Below, piece after piece: positions 2,984 to 26,871 of a stretch of DNA of 64,000 nucleotides. Position 1 is the stretch's first letter; every line of letters starts with the position of its first letter. The position numbers were made by a program, and so were the translations under genes. A model generated the notes under the pieces. That model was not told the origin of the DNA and searched no databases. It saw only the letters and a program-made list of their open reading frames with translations. Source of the stretch: Candidatus Omnitrophota bacterium (lineage in GTDB: Bacteria; Omnitrophota; Gorgyraeia; Zapsychrales; Aceulaceae); the NCBI GenBank assembly GCA_029564765.1, contig JAKQPK010000023.1:11479-75478 (forward strand), written 5' to 3'.

Positions 2984-3703
2984 TCAAAACGTAATCCATT
3001 CTTTCCTATGATTAACATTCATCCTTATAAGGTTGATTCTTTTGCCAAACAAGTTTTTCATCTGATCAAAAATTCCAGCGTCTATATTACATCCACAATA
3101 TACTTTTTTAATGCCACAATCTAAGTGGTAATGCTCCTTTTTCTGAATGACCCTAAATTCCTTTTCATATTTCCAATGAGCTAATTTTGTCGTTAAGGCA
3201 ATTAGAGATTGTTCGTTAGCTATTTTAGATTTAGGGCCATGAATTATTTCCGGCAAATCTTCTTTATAATCAACTTGAAATATTCGTCTTTTAGTATCCT
3301 TTGGAATTCGATGACGTTCTCTTCCCGGAGGTGTTTTTACCATCAGAACATCGTCATCAGGCACCTCTATTTCAATGGCTATTCCGGCACAGCTATCCGC
3401 ATAATGCGCCCAGAGAAGAACGTCATCATTTTTCTCTGAAAGGCAACAGATCCTCTTGTTTTTCACAAGAGTATTTATTTTCTCAGCCTTTGGATCTGAA
3501 CTTGAAGAACTTTCATATTCACCACGGACCAAAGACCCTGCTGGTGACTTCTCTCTTTTAATACCCGTCAGATATCTCAAGCTAAACATCCCCTCAAAAG
3601 GATCGTTTAACTTATCGATGCTTGCGCAATAAAGCCGCTTATTCAACAAAATATCGTACACGTGACCAAGATTACTTAAAGACTTATATTTATATAGTTT
3701 CAT
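2984..3703 (-). CDS. DUF2971 family protein
   Basis: 239 aa; signature elements of DUF2971: N-terminal LYKYKSL, LNDPFEG, ICCLSE...LLWAHYADSCAGIAIEI and C-terminal HWKYEKEFRV (EkEwR-like). Lies in an AT-rich stretch. Confidence 0.6.
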   Translation of the reverse strand: MKLYKYKSLSNLGHVYDILLNKRLYCASIDKLNDPFEGMFSLRYLTGIKREKSPAGSLVRGEYESSSSSDPKAEKINTLVKNKRICCLSEKNDDVLLWAHYADSCAGIAIEIEVPDDDVLMVKTPPGRERHRIPKDTKRRIFQVDYKEDLPEIIHGPKSKIANEQSLIALTTKLAHWKYEKEFRVIQKKEHYHLDCGIKKVYCGCNIDAGIFDQMKNLFGKRINLIRMNVNHRKEWITF

Positions 3704-3745: not shown

Positions 3746-5023
3746 CTACTGCCCTAGCAAGGTATTTTCTTCTTCATCCCAGGGACGTTCAGAAGTAGTT
3801 TCGTATTGGTCATGGGATTTGGGGTTGATATATCCGTTGCAAGTCTTATCATTGACTCTGATTTTTTTCTTAATCCATCCCAAGCGCATCATGCAGTCAG
3901 CAACGCGCCTCTGCCTGCCACGGTCGAAGTCAGAGGAGAAACCCTTCAAGCATTCTGTCCAAATATCAATGCTTCTTACCTTGGCCTTGCCGATAAGATA
4001 TTTCTCGATGGAGTCCTTCCAGCTATCAAAGGCATCAGGAGGACCTTGCACGTCTTCGGCATGCGAAAAAAGATATTCCAGAGCGATATTCCATTGCTTC
4101 TGTGTAGGATAATGGCTTAAAACAATCCCGCTGTTCAAAGCGCATTTTTGAATATTAATATATTTGATCAGCTTGTTATTTTTTATTGTTATTTGAGAAT
4201 CATTAATCACTAGAACCGATGTGTTTTTATCTTGCCTAAGTAATTTTACGATGCCAAAGGTATTGACAGCATTGACAGTATCCTCATCGCTCTGAAGACT
4301 TTCAGTTTTACATGAAGAAGGCAGAACATCTTCAGCATTTAAAAAAAGATGTTCAAGGGCACGATGCCATTCACCTTGCTCTGGAGAATGGCTCAGAACA
4401 ATCCCCTTGTTCAAAGCAGACTTCTGGATATTGCTGTATTTCATTATCTTATTATTTCTTATCTCAATTTCATGGCCATTTATTATCAAAATAGAAGTAT
4501 TATTACTTTTCTTCATGAGCTTTGTGATACCGAAGGTATTCACGTCAGCTTCTTCATCCTGAACAATATAAGATGCATCACCGGAAACTTTGACAGGAAT
4601 ATCTGTGATCCTGGAAAGCGAACCATCAGCATTATATCTAAAAAACTTTATTTCGGTCTCAGAAACAACAACGCCAAACAAAGCTCTCGCTACTGCAAGA
4701 TAGGAAACAAGTTGATGCTCAGTGTCCTTGTCCGCTTTTATCTTAATTTCAGCAATGATCAAGGGGGTTCTTTTATCGCTTAAAACTACGATGTCCGCGC
4801 GTTTCTTAGTGATGCCGATCTGGATAGGGTATTCTGTGATAACGGAAATAGGATCATAATTGTAATGCAAAACAAGCTTAACAAGAAACAACTGTCTCAC
4901 TACTTCCTCCGGCGTAGCCACTCGCTCGCTGGTGAAGTATTTGCTACAAATACTGCAAGCTCCTGAACCTTTTTCCGTTATAAGAATTCTGGACAAAAGG
5001 TCTGGTCGCATTGACCAAATCAT
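3746..5023 (-). CDS. HsdR-N-like PD-(D/E)xK nuclease-fold protein with two internal ~92-aa tandem repeats and a VirE/primase-C-like C-terminal tail
   Basis: 425 aa. The N-terminus (EYPIQIG...RADIVVL...PLIIAEIK) matches the type I restriction enzyme R-protein N-terminal (PD-D/ExK) domain pattern D...(E)xK. Residues ~156-233 and ~246-325 are two copies of the same unit (VNTFGI.KL....NTS.L.IN...I.I.NNK..KY.NIQK.ALN.GIVLSH.P.Q..W..ALE.LF..AEDV). The C-terminal RRVADCMMRLGWIKKKIRVNDKTCNGY resembles VapE/P4-primase C-terminal segments. AT-rich; SD aaggag upstream. Confidence 0.5.
   Translation of the reverse strand: MIWSMRPDLLSRILITEKGSGACSICSKYFTSERVATPEEVVRQLFLVKLVLHYNYDPISVITEYPIQIGITKKRADIVVLSDKRTPLIIAEIKIKADKDTEHQLVSYLAVARALFGVVVSETEIKFFRYNADGSLSRITDIPVKVSGDASYIVQDEEADVNTFGITKLMKKSNNTSILIINGHEIEIRNNKIMKYSNIQKSALNKGIVLSHSPEQGEWHRALEHLFLNAEDVLPSSCKTESLQSDEDTVNAVNTFGIVKLLRQDKNTSVLVINDSQITIKNNKLIKYINIQKCALNSGIVLSHYPTQKQWNIALEYLFSHAEDVQGPPDAFDSWKDSIEKYLIGKAKVRSIDIWTECLKGFSSDFDRGRQRRVADCMMRLGWIKKKIRVNDKTCNGYINPKSHDQYETTSERPWDEEENTLLGQ
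4049..4558 (-). repeat. in-frame ~276-nt tandem duplication inside the 3746..5023 CDS (two protein repeat units)
   Basis: Two collinear DNA segments (~4049-4288 and ~4325-4558) encode the two 80-92-aa repeat units; aligned stretches are visible at nucleotide level (e.g. ...aacaatcccgctgttcaaagcgcatttttgaatatt... vs ...aacaatccccttgttcaaagcagacttctggatatt...). Confidence 0.7.
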
Positions 5024-5052
5024 AAGACATATCTCCTTTTAATTTAATAAGA

Positions 5053-5072: not shown

Positions 5073-6044
5073 CTAAATCAACAAGTTCAAAATAACTTTG
5101 ATCAACAATTCTTTTTCTTCCGGCTTGCTCGCGGCAACCATAAGGGTCAAGGCGACCAACGCGTTGTCATCAATTCGCTTACTGCCGTCTTTGCGTAGAA
5201 GAATACCGTTTTTCTGCAAGAAACAGATAAAAAGTGCCGCCGCGATACGCTTGTTACCGTCAACAAAACTGTGGTTTTTTATAACGAAATACAATAAATG
5301 CGTAGCTTTTTCTTCGACCGTCGGATAAAGATCCTTTCCTCCAAACGTTTGATGGATAGCGTTGATGGAGCTTTGAAAACTCTTGTCCTTTTCCCGGCCA
5401 AAAAGCGGAAATTCCTTGAGCTGCTGTTTCATGGCCTGGATGATATTTTGAGCATGTTCATAAGTAAAAGCGAACCGAACTTGCCTTGTTCCCTTAGGGG
5501 AAGAAACCTTTTGATGATCGTAACCATCTAAAATATCAAGCGCGCGGCCATATTCTGCAATGACCTTGATCAACCCCTTAGTCTCATCGGATAGGCTATC
5601 AAGCTGGATGACGTTGCCTAAAAGCTTAATAGACCGCTGCAGTTCGAGATATTTATGTTCGGCAGTTTTCAACCGCTTTTCATTGATCGTATAGCCATCG
5701 ACCAAATGCTTCTTGAGCACCTTTGTGGCCCAGATACGGAAGCGGGTTCCATTCTTTGATTTGACACGGTATCCAACTGAGATAATGACATCGAGATTAT
5801 AGAAATTGGCTTCATAGGATTTCCCGTCAGAAGCAGTTATCCGGAATTTCCGGATAACTGCCTTTTTCGATAATTCTTGTTCCTTAAAAATATTCTGGAT
5901 GTGCTCATTGACAGTTCGCATGTTTCTACTAAATAACACAGCCATCTGTTTTTGGGTAAGCCAGACAGTCTCTTTTTCAAGATGAACTTTCAGGTCTTTG
6001 CCATACAAAACAACTTGACCCTTTGAAGCTTCATTGTTGATCAT
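5073..6044 (-). CDS. RhuM-family N-terminal domain fused to Fic/Doc-family domain (Doc-type motif)
   Basis: The table ORF runs to 6137, but the start is taken as ATG 6044 (MINNEASKGQVVLYGKDLKVHLEKETVWLTQKQMAVLF, a typical RhuM N-terminus) with a GGAG-type SD upstream. The C-terminal half carries HSFVDGNKRIAAALF, matching the Fic/Doc core HxFx(D/N)GNKR. Confidence 0.62.
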   Translation of the reverse strand: MINNEASKGQVVLYGKDLKVHLEKETVWLTQKQMAVLFSRNMRTVNEHIQNIFKEQELSKKAVIRKFRITASDGKSYEANFYNLDVIISVGYRVKSKNGTRFRIWATKVLKKHLVDGYTINEKRLKTAEHKYLELQRSIKLLGNVIQLDSLSDETKGLIKVIAEYGRALDILDGYDHQKVSSPKGTRQVRFAFTYEHAQNIIQAMKQQLKEFPLFGREKDKSFQSSINAIHQTFGGKDLYPTVEEKATHLLYFVIKNHSFVDGNKRIAAALFICFLQKNGILLRKDGSKRIDDNALVALTLMVAASKPEEKELLIKVILNLLI

Positions 6045-6060
6045 GTCAATATCTCCCCTC

Positions 6061-6079
6061 AACCCCCAAAAACCTTTCT
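6061..6079 (-). promoter_or_regulatory. conserved upstream motif copy B (AGAAAGGTTTTTGGGGGTT), 17 nt upstream of the RhuM-Doc start
   Basis: Gene-sense reading: gggAGAAAGGTTTTTGGGGGTTgaggGGAGATATtgacATG. Shares both the motif and the GGAGATAT SD-like block with copy A. Confidence 0.5.
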
Positions 6080-6081
6080 CC

Positions 6082-6525
6082 CTACCCTCTACTCTCCAAG
6101 ATGAAAGTGACGGGCCCGTCGTTAATGAGTGCCACATCCATCATGGCGCGGAATTGGCCGGTTTGAACCTTTTGGCCAGCGCTTTTAAGCGCATCGACAA
6201 ACGCGTTATAAAATTCTTCACCTTTTTGCGGATCCGCGGCCGCATCAAAAGAAGGGCGCCTGCCTTTTTCGCAGGCGCCCAAAAGTGTAAATTGCGAAAC
6301 GACCAAAAATTCCCCGCCGACTTCGGTAATAGAACAATTCATCTTGCCCTGAGCATCTTCAAAAATGCGAAGTTCAATAAGCTTTCTGACAAGATAGTTG
6401 ATATCATCTGCTGTGTCTTCTTTGGCAACGGCTAAAAAAACCAATAACCCTTTGCCGATACGGCCCACCACCTGGCCGCCCACCGTGACACTCGCCTCTT
6501 TGACCCTTTGCAAAACGATACGCAT
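6082..6525 (-). CDS. dtd: D-aminoacyl-tRNA deacylase
   Basis: 147 aa; MRIVLQRV start, SQFTL and NDGPVTF motifs characteristic of Dtd. Confidence 0.85.
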   Translation of the reverse strand: MRIVLQRVKEASVTVGGQVVGRIGKGLLVFLAVAKEDTADDINYLVRKLIELRIFEDAQGKMNCSITEVGGEFLVVSQFTLLGACEKGRRPSFDAAADPQKGEEFYNAFVDALKSAGQKVQTGQFRAMMDVALINDGPVTFILESRG

Positions 6526-23227: not shown

Positions 23228-23977
23228 TCACGGGGTCAGCCCCTCTTTAGCGGAAGGAGATATCCAATCTAAGTCGTGACCTTTCTGAAGCTGTTCTTTA
23301 TAAAGCTCTATTTGCTTGGCCCGATCCTCTATCCAGCAATTTGCCTGCTGGTCTCTTATGTAAACCCAAAACCTGCTTTCTCCGCCAATATTACCATAAC
23401 CCCAAAAGTTCCAACCACCCTCATTTGTATCTTGAGGCCAGCTGTCGCCAAAGAATTTCTGCCCGCTCATCTCCTTGACCCATCTCCCATCGTGAAACTC
23501 AGCCATACGATACCCAGGCCCAAATTGACGGCTACATAGGTCATTGGCCTGATCAAGGCTTGTAAGCGTATTTCCAACAACAGGGGGTGTGAGCTGAAGT
23601 TCTCCTTCAAGCCAGCCGCGGTAAGATTCTTTTACCCAGCTATGATCTGAACCATCAAGTTCATATCCCGGTCTTGGGGCTCCTGTCTTTTTTACGCACA
23701 GAATAGGCAACGCCCTGCTGCACGGGGTGTCGCCTACATACGCATTGCATGAACCCTCAAATTCAGTGCTTGGTTTTCCATGACAGCCTACCAGGTCAAT
23801 GCCAAAACGGTCATCATGTCTTTCCTTCCCCCAGGTAAGCCCGAACTTCTCACCGGCATCATCCTGGAAAGGATCGTCCAAAATCTCTCTCTGACAAAAC
23901 CCATTGATCGCATACGATAAGGACAAAAACAAAGAAATAATGAGTAGAAACGTGATCTTTTGTTCAAATTTTCCCAT
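23228..23977 (-). CDS. secreted Cys-containing hypothetical protein
   Basis: 249 aa; N-terminal signal peptide (ITFLLIISLFLSLSYA), several Cys, Trp-rich C-terminal half (WNFWGYGN). No family recognised. Followed by a strong terminator. Confidence 0.4.
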   Translation of the reverse strand: MGKFEQKITFLLIISLFLSLSYAINGFCQREILDDPFQDDAGEKFGLTWGKERHDDRFGIDLVGCHGKPSTEFEGSCNAYVGDTPCSRALPILCVKKTGAPRPGYELDGSDHSWVKESYRGWLEGELQLTPPVVGNTLTSLDQANDLCSRQFGPGYRMAEFHDGRWVKEMSGQKFFGDSWPQDTNEGGWNFWGYGNIGGESRFWVYIRDQQANCWIEDRAKQIELYKEQLQKGHDLDWISPSAKEGLTP

Positions 23978-24018
23978 TCGTACGCCTCCTTTTTTACCGC
24001 AACCGACAGCGATAAAAA

Positions 24019-24315
24019 CTATTTGTATTCACAAAGATAGGCCGCGTCTTCGGTCGTCTTGACCTTAAAAACAGATTTGGCTGGAACATCAAAAGATGAT
24101 CCCGCGCCAAAATCTTCCCATTCTTCGTATGCTGGCAGATAAACAGACATCATGCCGGCGATAACCGTCATGGCCTCCGGGCCATCAGTATTAAATTCAT
24201 ACTCACCCGGTTCAATAACACCCACGGTTTTCTTACCCTCAGCTGAATTAACGACCAACGACTTGACCTTCCCTTCAAAATACTCATTGACTGTAACCAC
24301 GACTATGACCCCCAT
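24019..24315 (-). CDS. ppnP: pyrimidine/purine nucleoside phosphorylase PpnP (YaiE/UPF0345/DUF1255 family)
   Basis: 98 aa; close motif agreement with E. coli YaiE (NEYFEGKVKS..., GEYEF.T...E.MTVI.G, C-terminal YLCEY). Confidence 0.7.
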   Translation of the reverse strand: MGVIVVVTVNEYFEGKVKSLVVNSAEGKKTVGVIEPGEYEFNTDGPEAMTVIAGMMSVYLPAYEEWEDFGAGSSFDVPAKSVFKVKTTEDAAYLCEYK

Positions 24316-24439
24316 TTAAATTGATTATAACAATACCCAACACCTTAAATTATTGTACTGATTGAATGAAAAAAATCCAGAGGAAAAATTAACTGAGGCC
24401 ATAACTTACGGAGCAACAGCGCTCGTAAGTTATCCAGCC

Positions 24440-24561
24440 GAACTTATTTCGAGCCAAAGGCGAGGAGCAAATGAGCGCCAAATTGTTCATGCGAACTTAT
24501 TTCGAGCCGAAGGCGAGAAGCAAATGTGCACCCAGATCCACTGGCGAGGAGCCAGTGAGCA
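24440..24561 (+). repeat. non-coding direct repeat, 53-bp period, two full ~39-bp copies plus a partial third
   Basis: gaacttatttcgagccaaaggcgaggagcaaatgagcgc (24440-24478) and gaacttatttcgagccgaaggcgagaagcaaatgtgcac (24493-24531), then gcgaggagccagtgagcac. Preceded by hairpin taacttacg-N13-cgtaagtta (24402-24432). Period is not a multiple of 3 and no ORF is maintained. Confidence 0.6.
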
Positions 24562-24626
24562 CACAAGTTGAAAAGAAAAGATTGGGACACTTCTATCAAA
24601 ACCCCTTATCCGCCAACGGTTTATTT

Positions 24627-24647
24627 AGAAACGTTCTAGGGTTTTTT
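24627..24647 (+). promoter_or_regulatory. conserved motif variant copy D (AGAAACGTTCTAGGGTTTTTT) inside the non-coding stretch
   Basis: Plus-strand copy, 19/21 identical to copy C. A weaker relative, gggggAGAAAGTTCTAAGC, sits at 24941-24960. Confidence 0.4.
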
Positions 24648-25082
24648 CCGCTAACCTTTTATTCACAAACAACGAACAACGGTAACAACGAAAATGTGCC
24701 AGGCACTTTTTAGTGTAAATCAGCTGATAGGCAGAAGGTTAAAGCTATTTCACCTTAACCCAGAAACGGAAATATTTAGCCTTTACAGGATAAATCGTCT
24801 TCCCATTCCTAATGATGTACCGGCAGAATACCAAGCGGCATCCCGGACGGTATTCACATTGTCCAGCCATATGCTGACCCTCCTTTCTAGCGAAGGTTTT
24901 CTCACCTCCAAGCCCATTTTGTAATTTTCAAAAAGGGGCTGGGGGAGAAAGTTCTAAGCTAAAATAGAAGATCATCAAAAGGACGACCCATCTGCCTATC
25001 AGCAATATTCAAAGAACTCCGAATTCCAGGGACACGTACAAAATTAATTAGGTACGTATCCCCTGACTCCTTGTAAGAATTT

Positions 25083-26339
25083 TTATCGAAAACTTGTTAT
25101 TTCATTAAATATTTCAATTGCAAAATTATCGGTCATTCCGGCAATGAAATCAATAACAGATTGTGTATAGCTTCCTTTGTCTGCCAAAACATACAATATT
25201 TCATTATTATATTTATTTCCTAAACTACGAAACTTTGGATACGACATTGGCCAGCTCCTAAGGTCCGACCGTCCCTTTATCCACGCCAAGAAATTTCTTT
25301 GCAATATTGGATAAACTTTTAGACTTTTTTTGATGCTCTCGTATGAATCTCTTTGCGCATAAGCCCTCATCAAAACCTCAAAAACTAACTCTATAACAAG
25401 CTTCGCATACTTTTTATACGCTTGCAATCTTTCGCTGCTATAGATATTTCTATAGTTGTACTCGGTCAAAGAAGTCATTACTTTTGAATACTTTTCTGTG
25501 AACCGTATGCCATTTTCTGGGCTGCTAGCTCTACATAAATCAATGATAAATCCATGCATTAAAGCTGTGTTGCTTATCTCGCGAATTTTTTCTTTTTTTC
25601 CAACTATATCATTAACTATGGCTTTTAATTCTTTGAGCTGCTGTTTCCTTAAAATATCTAACCGCACAGCATCTTCAATGTCTCTGCCTATATATGCAAT
25701 TCGATCGGATATCTTTACTACGCATCCCTCCCATGTAAAAGGAGTAAATAACCCTTTTTCTTGGATAGTCGCCAAATCTATTGCTTGTTCTCTTGGATAA
25801 ATCGTATTTCCTCTATCTTCCCCACAATGCAGCAAGATTCCGTCTCTCACTGCATAGGTTAACAATAAATTCTGGAAAACATCATTTTGATCAGGCAAAA
25901 TTTCAATTTGATCAGCAAATCGTAAACTATTTCGTTCATGCCAAAATTTAGCGCTCAATTTATCTTTAGTAATTTCCTCTAATACTTCTTCACCAGCATG
26001 ACCAAAAGGAGCGTGCCCAAGATCATGACCCAAAGCTATTGCATTAGTTAATTCAGTGTTTAAGCCAAGAAAATTAGCAATTGTATAACTGACAGCAACA
26101 ACATGATTAACATGCTCAATCCTGGTACAAATATGGTCGTTTTTTGTAGCAAAAAAAACTTGTGTTTTATGCTTTAATCTCCGAAAAGCCGTACAGTGAA
26201 GTATCCGATTATAATCTCGCGCAAATTCGCTTCTTATCTCTGGATCGCGTGAATACAATGAATGCTGTCGCTTAATAGCATTTTCCCATTTTCTATTTTT
26301 CTCATACATTCTGACAGAAAAAAATGAGTCTTTTCCCAT
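25083..26339 (-). CDS. dGTP triphosphohydrolase-family HD-domain protein, divergent second paralog
   Basis: 418 aa; motifs (RILHCTAFRRLKHKTQVF, HVNHVVAVS, GHDLGHAPFGHAGEEVLEE) are collinear with the canonical dgt-like gene at 43009..44214. Sits in an AT-rich segment. Has the conserved upstream motif and a GAGG SD. Confidence 0.72.
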   Translation of the reverse strand: MGKDSFFSVRMYEKNRKWENAIKRQHSLYSRDPEIRSEFARDYNRILHCTAFRRLKHKTQVFFATKNDHICTRIEHVNHVVAVSYTIANFLGLNTELTNAIALGHDLGHAPFGHAGEEVLEEITKDKLSAKFWHERNSLRFADQIEILPDQNDVFQNLLLTYAVRDGILLHCGEDRGNTIYPREQAIDLATIQEKGLFTPFTWEGCVVKISDRIAYIGRDIEDAVRLDILRKQQLKELKAIVNDIVGKKEKIREISNTALMHGFIIDLCRASSPENGIRFTEKYSKVMTSLTEYNYRNIYSSERLQAYKKYAKLVIELVFEVLMRAYAQRDSYESIKKSLKVYPILQRNFLAWIKGRSDLRSWPMSYPKFRSLGNKYNNEILYVLADKGSYTQSVIDFIAGMTDNFAIEIFNEITSFR

Positions 26340-26356
26340 ACAAAAACCTCATAAAA

Positions 26357-26372
26357 ACCCCAAAACGTTTCT
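26357..26372 (-). promoter_or_regulatory. conserved upstream motif copy C (AGAAACGTTTTGGGGTT), 18 nt upstream of the dGTPase-paralog start
   Basis: Gene-sense reading: gatAGAAACGTTTTGGGGTTtttatGAGGtttttgtATG, within the 34-nt gap between the ORF6N and dGTPase-paralog genes. Confidence 0.5.
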
Positions 26373-26373
26373 A

Positions 26374-26871
26374 TCAAAATCCAAGCTTACCCTTGGGCTT
26401 TTGCGGCTCTTCGAATAGATTTTTCAAAGCACTAAATACTACTTGAAATTGCTTGTCGTATTTCCTTTCCATCTCTTCGATTTTACGCCTGATATTAACA
26501 TTTGTTAAAGACATCCGGCGTAATTGGGTAAATGCGCGCATGATTTGAATGTTGACAGCGATCGCCCTATCGCTACTTAATACTCCCGAAAGCATCGCAA
26601 CGCCTTGCTCGGTAAAAGCTAAAGGCAAGTGGGGCGAAAATTTTAAGAATTTGAGGTGGTCGCAAATTGCGACCACCTCTTCTTTTTCTTTATTCGTTAA
26701 CTGGAACATAAAATCTTCCGGGAATCGTTTTTTGTTCCTTTTTACCTGCTCGTTGAGCCGTTTTGTTTGCACGCCATACAATAAAGCCAAATCGCTATCC
26801 ATCATGACTTTTTTGCCCCGAATGAAGAATATCTTGCTGGTGATAGCCTCAGCTGAAATTAAATTAGGCAT
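26374..26871 (-). CDS. ORF6N (KilA-N-related) domain protein
   Basis: 165 aa; IFFIRGKKVMMDSDLALLYGVQTKRLNEQVKRNKKRFPEDFMFQLT matches the ORF6N domain consensus. AT-rich. Confidence 0.62.
   Translation of the reverse strand: MPNLISAEAITSKIFFIRGKKVMMDSDLALLYGVQTKRLNEQVKRNKKRFPEDFMFQLTNKEKEEVVAICDHLKFLKFSPHLPLAFTEQGVAMLSGVLSSDRAIAVNIQIMRAFTQLRRMSLTNVNIRRKIEEMERKYDKQFQVVFSALKNLFEEPQKPKGKLGF

Follow-up and report, generated by a model that had tools for sequence, protein, structure and literature searches.

In Odn (Gp88), a chimeric nuclease encoded by the Vibrio phage ICP1, the DNA-binding domain shares 42% identity with the RepA_N domain of PLE, and the protein cleaves PLE origins in an iteron-dependent manner (PMC8263062). 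It provides a precedent in which a copy of a rival's origin-binding domain, joined to a nuclease, makes an origin-cleaving immunity protein (PMC8263062). In SaPI Rep, the C-terminal winged helix recognises the origin iterons, and its removal abolishes origin binding (PMC9371898). Here, we describe a gene (3746-5023, minus strand) in a 64,000-nucleotide stretch of DNA from a Candidatus Omnitrophota bacterium (GCA_029564765.1, contig JAKQPK010000023.1; this whole stretch is referred to as the window). Its 425-residue product joins a predicted PD-(D/E)xK nuclease domain, two copies of an apparently undescribed unit of about 79 residues, and a tail homologous to the C-terminal domain of phage VapE proteins. 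We tentatively propose, giving the idea slightly less than an even chance, that this protein is a stand-alone, modular, origin-directed DNA endonuclease acting against a phage or another mobile element, and thus a host-side analogue of Odn.

The proposal starts from the tail. Residues 325-421 share 70% amino acid identity with the last 97 residues of P0005, a 433-residue VapE-like protein (PF05272), and 77% DNA identity over 209 nucleotides (nt); identity between the tail and P0006 is 51%. The Pfam core of P0005 ends at residue 339 and the similarity begins at residue 337. The P-loop core of PF05272 had no match in our protein, and no further VapE sequence was found anywhere in the window. L001, the 15-kb contig on which P0005 lies, carries further genes for a head-tail connector, an endonuclease VII, an SNF2 helicase and a DnaG zinc-ribbon protein, and we therefore regard it as a phage contig. 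When metagenomes were scanned with the tail profile, four relatives were recovered, all four of them VapE or Prim-Pol-VapE proteins, with the terminal 'WDEEEN' peptide included in the similarity. The best Foldseek matches among the BFVD viral models were phage VapE/COG5545 ATPases and primases (E 1e-5 to 1e-3). The tail is a clear homologue of the phage VapE C-terminal domain, which goes beyond the resemblance to VapE/primase tails pointed out in an initial annotation of the sequence. PDB sequence searches with the whole protein and with the tail profile gave nothing meaningful. Cultured-phage genomes searched by tblastn with the tail, the unit pair and the tails of two other family members gave no match, and pattern scans of IMG/VR with the tail and the unit produced no confirmed relative.

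Residues 234-425 were modelled separately, as MAFFT had stacked the units of all homologues onto unit 1. This AlphaFold 2 run used an alignment of 32 units and tails and gave a mean predicted local distance difference test (pLDDT) score of 84.5, with most of the tail between 85 and 95. In the model, residues 331-399 form a winged helix (a1-b1-a2-a3-b2-b3), with both the expected topology and structural likeness to known winged helices, followed by a low-confidence acidic end. The predicted recognition helix (GRQRRVADCMMRL) and the basic wing (IKKKIRV..GYI) are near-identical to their counterparts in P0005. Over a core of 75 residues the two tails are 83% identical and include a run of 30 identical residues, which takes in the wing (IKK.IR...GY) and the basic residues that open the recognition helix (GRQRR), whereas third codon positions agree at only 52%. 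This disparity suggests that purifying selection has long acted on one and the same surface in the two lineages and, since the third positions have diverged, the shared domain is not a fresh transfer. The P0005 tail also has the G+C (GC) content of our tail, 0.46, within a contig of 0.39.

Such conservation raises the question of what the surface contacts. The main rival to our proposal, which we consider unlikely, is that the tail mimics the helicase C-terminal domain in its protein contacts and not in origin binding. Its partner would be the adjacent ATPase protomer of a VapE hexamer, or a polymerase, primase or single-stranded DNA-binding protein docking on the acidic peptide, and the nuclease would then be brought to phage replication forks, or helicase assembly would be poisoned. 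This fits with SaPI Rep, whose C-terminal domain is swapped onto the neighbouring protomer and is needed for ATPase and helicase activity (PMC9371898). It also fits with the acidic end, PWDEEENT, being kept between the bacterial protein and phage VapE proteins, and with the 30 residues that remain identical despite saturated synonymous sites, which a protein interface explains better than an arms race over a DNA site. However, conserved basic residues are found in both the recognition helix (RQRR) and the wing (KKKIR), as DNA contact would lead one to expect, and the intact, conserved nuclease site requires a DNA substrate anyway.

That nuclease site lies in the N-terminal domain, which matches HSDR_N_2 over the entire profile (Pfam; positions 1-110 of 110; E=3.1e-18; 66.3 bits against a gathering cut-off of 25). 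This is the sole significant Pfam match in the 425-residue protein, and the homologues P0002 and P0004 likewise match HSDR_N_2. The initial annotation had recognised an HsdR-N-type PD-(D/E)xK domain from the segments RADIVVL and AEIK; these contain D77 and E92/K94, respectively, and the assignment is borne out. Together with E64, these residues are unchanged in all 22-24 family sequences covering those columns, and AlphaFold models the nuclease part with a pLDDT of about 88. By its sequence, the N-terminal domain belongs to the PD-(D/E)xK superfamily, has a conserved catalytic motif and is a predicted nuclease. Pfam found no superfamily 2 (SF2) motor (ResIII + Helicase_C) after it, and hsdM and hsdS are not adjacent to the gene, whose neighbours encode RhuM-Fic, DUF2971, TatD and Dtd proteins. 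PADLOC-DB v2 gave no full-length model match; the N-terminal domain alone matched the first ~120 positions of type I methyltransferase models. Beyond the family, the next-best matches were HSDR_N_2-bearing type I/IIG methyltransferases.

The occurrence of HSDR_N_2 at the N-terminus of many type I/IIG methyltransferases lends some weight to another explanation, in which the protein is a non-catalytic DNA binder. By competing with the helicase for iterons, it would block a phage or island origin or act as a regulator, and its PD-(D/E)xK fold would be a further domain for DNA binding or oligomerisation. HSDR_N_2 is not known to be catalytic in these methyltransferases, and a winged-helix tail alone could block an origin. 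The constancy of E64, D77, E92 and K94 across ~25 divergent lineages nevertheless argues for retained catalysis, and we regard this explanation as very improbable.

We infer nuclease activity and DNA binding by the tail, with an origin as the target, a part for the units and an overall role in defence, and we hypothesize that these combine as follows. The N-terminal PD-(D/E)xK domain would cut DNA. The winged helix of the tail, taken from the C-terminal domain of a phage VapE-type self-loading helicase or sharing recent common ancestry with it, would recognise the target by binding the DNA of the phage helicase, presumably replication-origin iterons. One or two of the ~79-residue units, on flexible linkers, would act as a spacer or provide accessory DNA contacts between reader and cutter. 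Cleavage at or near the origin would stop the replication of P0005-like phages. That the tail finds the phage origin and the nuclease cuts nearby is proposed because of the analogy with SaPI Rep and Odn. A candidate target is present on the phage contig: a non-coding region of 28% GC (L001 9611-9983) contains 11 TATAACA iterons, in both orientations and within 280 nt, followed by four tandem TATAAGTAAG repeats, and looks like an iteron-type replication origin. In support of a defensive role, the gene lies in a three-gene, low-GC islet that carries two PADLOC defence candidates.

Several points weigh against this model. Origin binding by VapE-type C-terminal domains is extrapolated from SaPI Rep, which belongs to a different helicase clade, and PD-(D/E)xK folds with intact motifs sometimes serve binding only. 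Synonymous divergence between our tail and the phage tail is saturated, so the capture is old. An arms race predicts phage escape, yet 83% identity has been kept, and a conserved protein partner could account for this instead; moreover, the conserved acidic end PWDEEENT resembles a peptide for protein interaction more than it does a DNA reader. The matches of other family members' tails to phage protein families, described below, are individually weak (E 1e-5 to 0.02). PADLOC covers the protein only through the likeness of its N-terminal domain to type I methyltransferases, and the PDC families represented next to the gene are candidates only.

Between the predicted nuclease and the tail, the two internal repeats noted in the initial annotation, with all the motifs quoted for them, align without gaps over 79 residues (155-233 against 247-325; score 244, compared with 31 +/- 5 for 200 shuffles) and have a period of 92 residues, or 276 nt. 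The units are 59% identical at the amino acid level and 65% at the nucleotide level. Third codon positions agree at 48%, the nonsynonymous divergence (dN) is 0.29, and the synonymous divergence (dS, Nei-Gojobori) is saturated and incomputable. From the third positions and the saturated dS we conclude that the duplication is old and that both copies are under purifying selection. Of the earlier suggestion that it was either recent or conserved, only the second alternative therefore stands. A 276-nt spacing had also been described as visible in the DNA itself; it is present, but faintly, in two short seed families only (D1 and D7), and Tandem Repeats Finder reported nothing.

The unit is modelled as a compact fold (pLDDT 92-97) in which three beta-strands precede a short helix and two longer ones, with lower-confidence linkers on either side. 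AlphaFold thus predicts an independent compact module, and not the piece of a propeller or tail fibre that had been considered as an alternative. In Pfam, none of 27 units matched any family below E=0.03. A profile of 27 unit sequences found nothing in the PDB below E=1.8, and Foldseek found nothing in the PDB below E=0.05, with a query model consisting of the unit plus the tail, so that weak unit-only matches could be masked. As first supposed, the unit appears to be an undescribed domain, although the scope of these searches leaves room for a distant structural relative. The initial annotation suggested that the repeats could be DNA- or ligand-binding sensor modules coupled to a nuclease; with a median pI of about 9 they are only mildly basic, which is compatible with nucleic-acid contact. 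In the 62 fetched loci, the unit was present in family members only, and neither in phage VapE/primase proteins nor elsewhere. Separately, we considered whether unit and tail could be remote homologues forming a tandem winged helix. This was rejected: the hhalign probability was below 1%, and the beta3-alpha3 order of the unit is unlike winged-helix topology.

When 1.84 billion cluster representatives were scanned exhaustively with a HMMER profile of the unit (E<=0.001), only 25 proteins (clusters) were found to carry it. Nearly all follow a common plan, with an N-terminal extension, HSDR_N_2, a linker, one unit and a tail of 80-150 residues. The tails end in the motif 'L..(L/K)G(F/W)...r..G....y.l', collinear with the VapE-type tail. 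The architecture that the initial annotation had called unusual is therefore confirmed in its three parts (nuclease, units and VapE tail) but is not unique to this gene, and instead defines a small family. Homologues differing in repeat number, for which a search had been suggested, do occur, as members with one and with two units. By comparison with the exhaustive scan, a word-indexed search with a four-unit profile came back empty, even though the exhaustive search scores P0001 at 272 bits, which reflects a limit of the tool. The word-indexed search missed almost all family members, including the cluster of our own protein, and its negatives for short domains are unreliable. Run with the full family profile, it added P0029 only, and its output was otherwise dominated by HSDR_N_2 methyltransferases.

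Two-unit members were found in at least six lineages (our gene, P0021, P0029, P0038, L016/L017 and L020). In our gene, P0029 and P0038, the two units of a protein are each other's closest relatives. The genes at 9980-11392 of L016 and L017 (Candidatus Tenderia, Chromatiaceae; 470 residues) contain two near-identical copies of the unit with its upstream linker, while a close homologue in a betaproteobacterial metagenome-assembled genome (MAG; L018 9980-11170) contains one. On sequence grounds, the L016/L017 case is a very recent tandem duplication of the unit module. These within-protein closest pairs, together with the two copies in L016/L017 against one in L018, indicate that the unit has been duplicated repeatedly and at different times.

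Some members depart from the common plan. P0029 (L009 5481-6407), from high-GC DNA, has two units and a tail without HSDR_N_2, and is encoded downstream of a 1178-residue protein with a faint AAA_22 match, a 137-residue open reading frame (ORF) and a radical SAM protein. Either the unit can occur independently of the nuclease, or the nuclease may be provided in trans. In L020 (a Nitrosomonadales MAG), frame +1 encodes units at residues 279-350 and 389-454, farther from the N-terminus than usual; this ORF runs off the contig end and may hold a third, degenerate unit or an insertion.

The tails of the family are of particular relevance to the proposed mechanism. In a PHROGs scan, the tails of five of ten members matched phage families annotated 'DNA primase' or 'DNA helicase'; the families differ, and the matches fall at their very C-terminal end (60-100 positions). 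Although each match is weak (E 1e-5 to 0.02), together they are hard to attribute to chance, and they fit with diversification of the tail, or its exchange, among types of helicase C-terminal domain. The five matches to different phage primase and helicase C-termini would also fit with tails being exchangeable targeting modules. The tail of P0021 was compared with the C-terminus of the adjacent Prim-Pol/DUF3987 protein as its possible source, and no similarity was found.

A broader hypothesis, which we find somewhat unlikely as a whole, is that this gene is the founding example of a host-encoded 'plug-in' family of origin-directed nucleases, composed of a cutter, a unit of variable copy number and captured origin-reading tails. 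Tails would be taken repeatedly from whichever phage or satellite primase-helicase threatens the lineage, and the distance from recognition site to cut would be set by how many units are present. If true, this would amount to innate immunity that is sequence-specific and needs neither a methyltransferase nor a guide RNA.

Next, we compared the genomic contexts of the relatives. All-against-all BLAST of the neighbours across loci revealed no conserved partner gene, and because no neighbouring gene is conserved, the protein presumably works alone. The RhuM-Fic and DUF2971 genes flanking our gene were not conserved partners in this comparison, and the DUF2971 protein had no relative among the neighbours of family members at other loci. 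The neighbourhoods of the relatives are often defence-like or mobile. Relatives adjoin an MNT/HEPN pair or a PDC-S01 ATPase and an HNH-effector-like gene, and one member lies within an island encoding AlpA and Prim-Pol/PriCT_1/DUF3987 proteins. Judged by eye, an apparent small toxin-antitoxin pair is also among these neighbours.

A solitary gene in unrelated chromosomal contexts, without conserved neighbours, could also be a selfish or inter-element weapon, that is, a homing-endonuclease-like gene, or the cargo of a satellite or island, that cuts competitors. The units and the winged helix would then be DNA-binding modules arranged as 'beads on a string'. Small modules of variable copy number are typical of homing endonucleases, and one family member is located inside the AlpA island described above. 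Odn itself derives from homing-endonuclease-like genes (PMC8263062). In contrast, no intron, intein, integrase or pair of empty and occupied sites was seen in the loci examined, and the islet in the window has two defence-candidate genes and no mobility genes. We consider this alternative quite improbable; it differs from the origin-directed defence nuclease that we propose in who benefits and not in mechanism.

The gene is the middle one of the three co-directional genes that form the islet, which is flanked by the housekeeping genes dtd and tatD (Table 1). The GC content of the islet is 0.40-0.43, against 0.46 across the whole window. No integrase, tRNA or Rfam element was found near the islet, and a promoter and terminator scan gave no more matches than shuffled sequence. 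The longer of the possible starts of our gene is likely to be the correct one, because an AGGAG lies upstream and the resulting N-terminus (MIWSM...; MIW..P.LL) matches that of homologues ('MxW.L.P.LL'). An identical protein, called from M5, is present on three public contigs (up to 270 kb in length). Its NCBI entry assigns it to a Candidatus Omnitrophota MAG and bears only the name 'type I restriction enzyme HsdR N-terminal domain-containing protein'. The longest ORF of the upstream RhuM-Fic gene extends into the 3' end of dtd (6082-6525), and the public annotation uses a later start that gives 323 residues. The window has a second low-GC stretch (23228-26871, minus strand; GC 0.39 over 24-26 kb), which may be another small defence islet. 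It encodes an HD + HD_assoc (dGTPase-like) protein, an ORF6N-domain protein and an unassigned 249-residue ORF, and ~1.1 kb within it (23978-25082) has no ORF of at least 120 residues.

Table 1 Features of the gene at 3746-5023 and of its immediate neighbours (window coordinates)
Feature	Position	Strand	Description
Whole gene	3746..5023	-	Single uninterrupted ORF of 425 residues; coordinates include the stop codon (3746-3748)
Ribosome-binding site AGGAG	5033..5037	-	9 nt 5' of the ATG at 5023
N-terminal extension, residues 1-37	4913..5023	-	Conserved in the family (M.W.L.P.LL...); modelled as a small beta-hairpin against the nuclease domain
HSDR_N_2 (PF13588) domain, residues 38-143	4595..4912	-	Pfam match; PD-(D/E)xK nuclease fold
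Putative catalytic residues	E64 4832-4834; D77 4793-4795; E92 4748-4750; K94 4742-4744	-	Invariant in relatives with the domain
Linker 1, residues 144-154	4562..4594	-	Low model confidence; homologues differ in linker length
Unit 1, residues 155-233	4325..4561	-	Putative undescribed domain of ~79 residues
Linker 2, residues 234-246 (LPSSCKTESLQSD)	4286..4324	-	Model confidence below that of unit and tail
Unit 2, residues 247-325	4049..4285	-	Modelled with 3 beta-strands and 3 helices; pLDDT 92-97
VapE-type C-terminal domain, residues 326-399	3827..4048	-	Predicted winged helix (a1-b1-a2-a3-b2-b3)
C-terminal peptide, residues 400-425	3749..3826	-	Low-confidence model; acidic motif PWDEEENT, common to phage VapE proteins
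RhuM + Fic/DOC protein	5073..6137	-	Upstream neighbour; PADLOC candidate PDC-S23 (E=6e-129)
DUF2971 protein	2984..3703	-	Downstream neighbour; PADLOC candidate PDC-S31 (E=3e-49)

The composition of the gene is mosaic (within 3749-5023, GC 0.41 in the N-terminal domain, 0.36 in the units and 0.46 in the tail). This mosaic, and the fact that VapE is represented by its last 97 residues only, with no other VapE sequence in the window, would be expected of a functionless accidental fusion or of the remnant of a decaying prophage VapE gene. However, the ORF is intact and has a ribosome-binding site, the identical protein occurs in three independent assemblies, and dN is much lower than dS when the two units are compared with each other and when our tail is compared with the phage tail. 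The three-part architecture also recurs across the family, and we find it scarcely credible that the gene is without function.

If the tail carries the specificity of a phage helicase, this protein would be the first bacterial counterpart of Odn, and the capture of an enemy replication-initiator domain would be a general route to immunity genes, extending beyond one Vibrio phage. The model would also yield a testable rule, in which a matching helicase tail predicts the phage targeted by a defence gene, and would provide a natural scaffold for retargetable nucleases. The ~79-residue unit, which has a confident predicted fold, lacks a family assignment and has been duplicated independently in several lineages, offers a clean case for studying the effect of tandem module number in a nuclease.

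Finally, we compared the protein with known systems. With HsdR and the HSDR_N_2 type I/IIG methyltransferases it has in common the PF13588 domain and the E...D...ExK motif; however, it lacks the SF2 motor, the methyltransferase domain and the HsdM/HsdS partner and, as a stand-alone protein of 425 residues, it is not an HsdR. Its last ~97 residues are homologous to those of the helicases of the VapE/COG5545 (PF05272), SaPI Rep, SCCmec Cch and NrS-1 type (70% identity to P0005), but the P-loop ATPase/helicase core and the N-terminal domains of these proteins are entirely missing, so it is not a VapE protein either. In FokI (type IIS) and Mrr (type IV), as in our protein, a separate PD-(D/E)xK cutter is tethered to one or more winged-helix recognition modules, a design that predicts cleavage away from the recognition site. 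Beyond the nuclease superfamily, no sequence relationship to FokI or Mrr is detectable; our protein has no cognate methyltransferase, and its recognition module derives from a replication protein. Shedu (SduA, DUF4263) is similar in being a stand-alone PD-(D/E)xK nuclease with swappable accessory domains and defence-island contexts, but our protein has no PADLOC SduA match, belongs to another nuclease subfamily, and has accessory domains that are C-terminal and of a different kind.

Among the systems compared, our protein most closely resembles Odn in design. Both are stand-alone, one-protein chimeras of a nuclease and a DNA-binding domain resembling a rival's initiator, and ours fuses its predicted nuclease to a domain highly similar to one from a rival replication protein, with its role as origin reader taken from SaPI Rep. 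Mimicry of the initiator's specificity has been demonstrated for Odn and is suggested by analogy for our protein. The parts differ. Odn has a C-terminal T5orf172/GIY-YIG nuclease, and our protein an N-terminal HSDR_N_2 PD-(D/E)xK domain; what has been borrowed is a RepA_N domain in Odn but a winged helix of the VapE C-terminal type in our protein; and Odn has no counterpart of the repeated unit. Since Pfam found neither T5orf172 nor RepA_N in our protein, the kinship with Odn is one of design and not of descent. The roles are also exchanged: Odn is encoded by a phage and targets a satellite, whereas our gene lies on a bacterial chromosome and its product resembles a phage protein.

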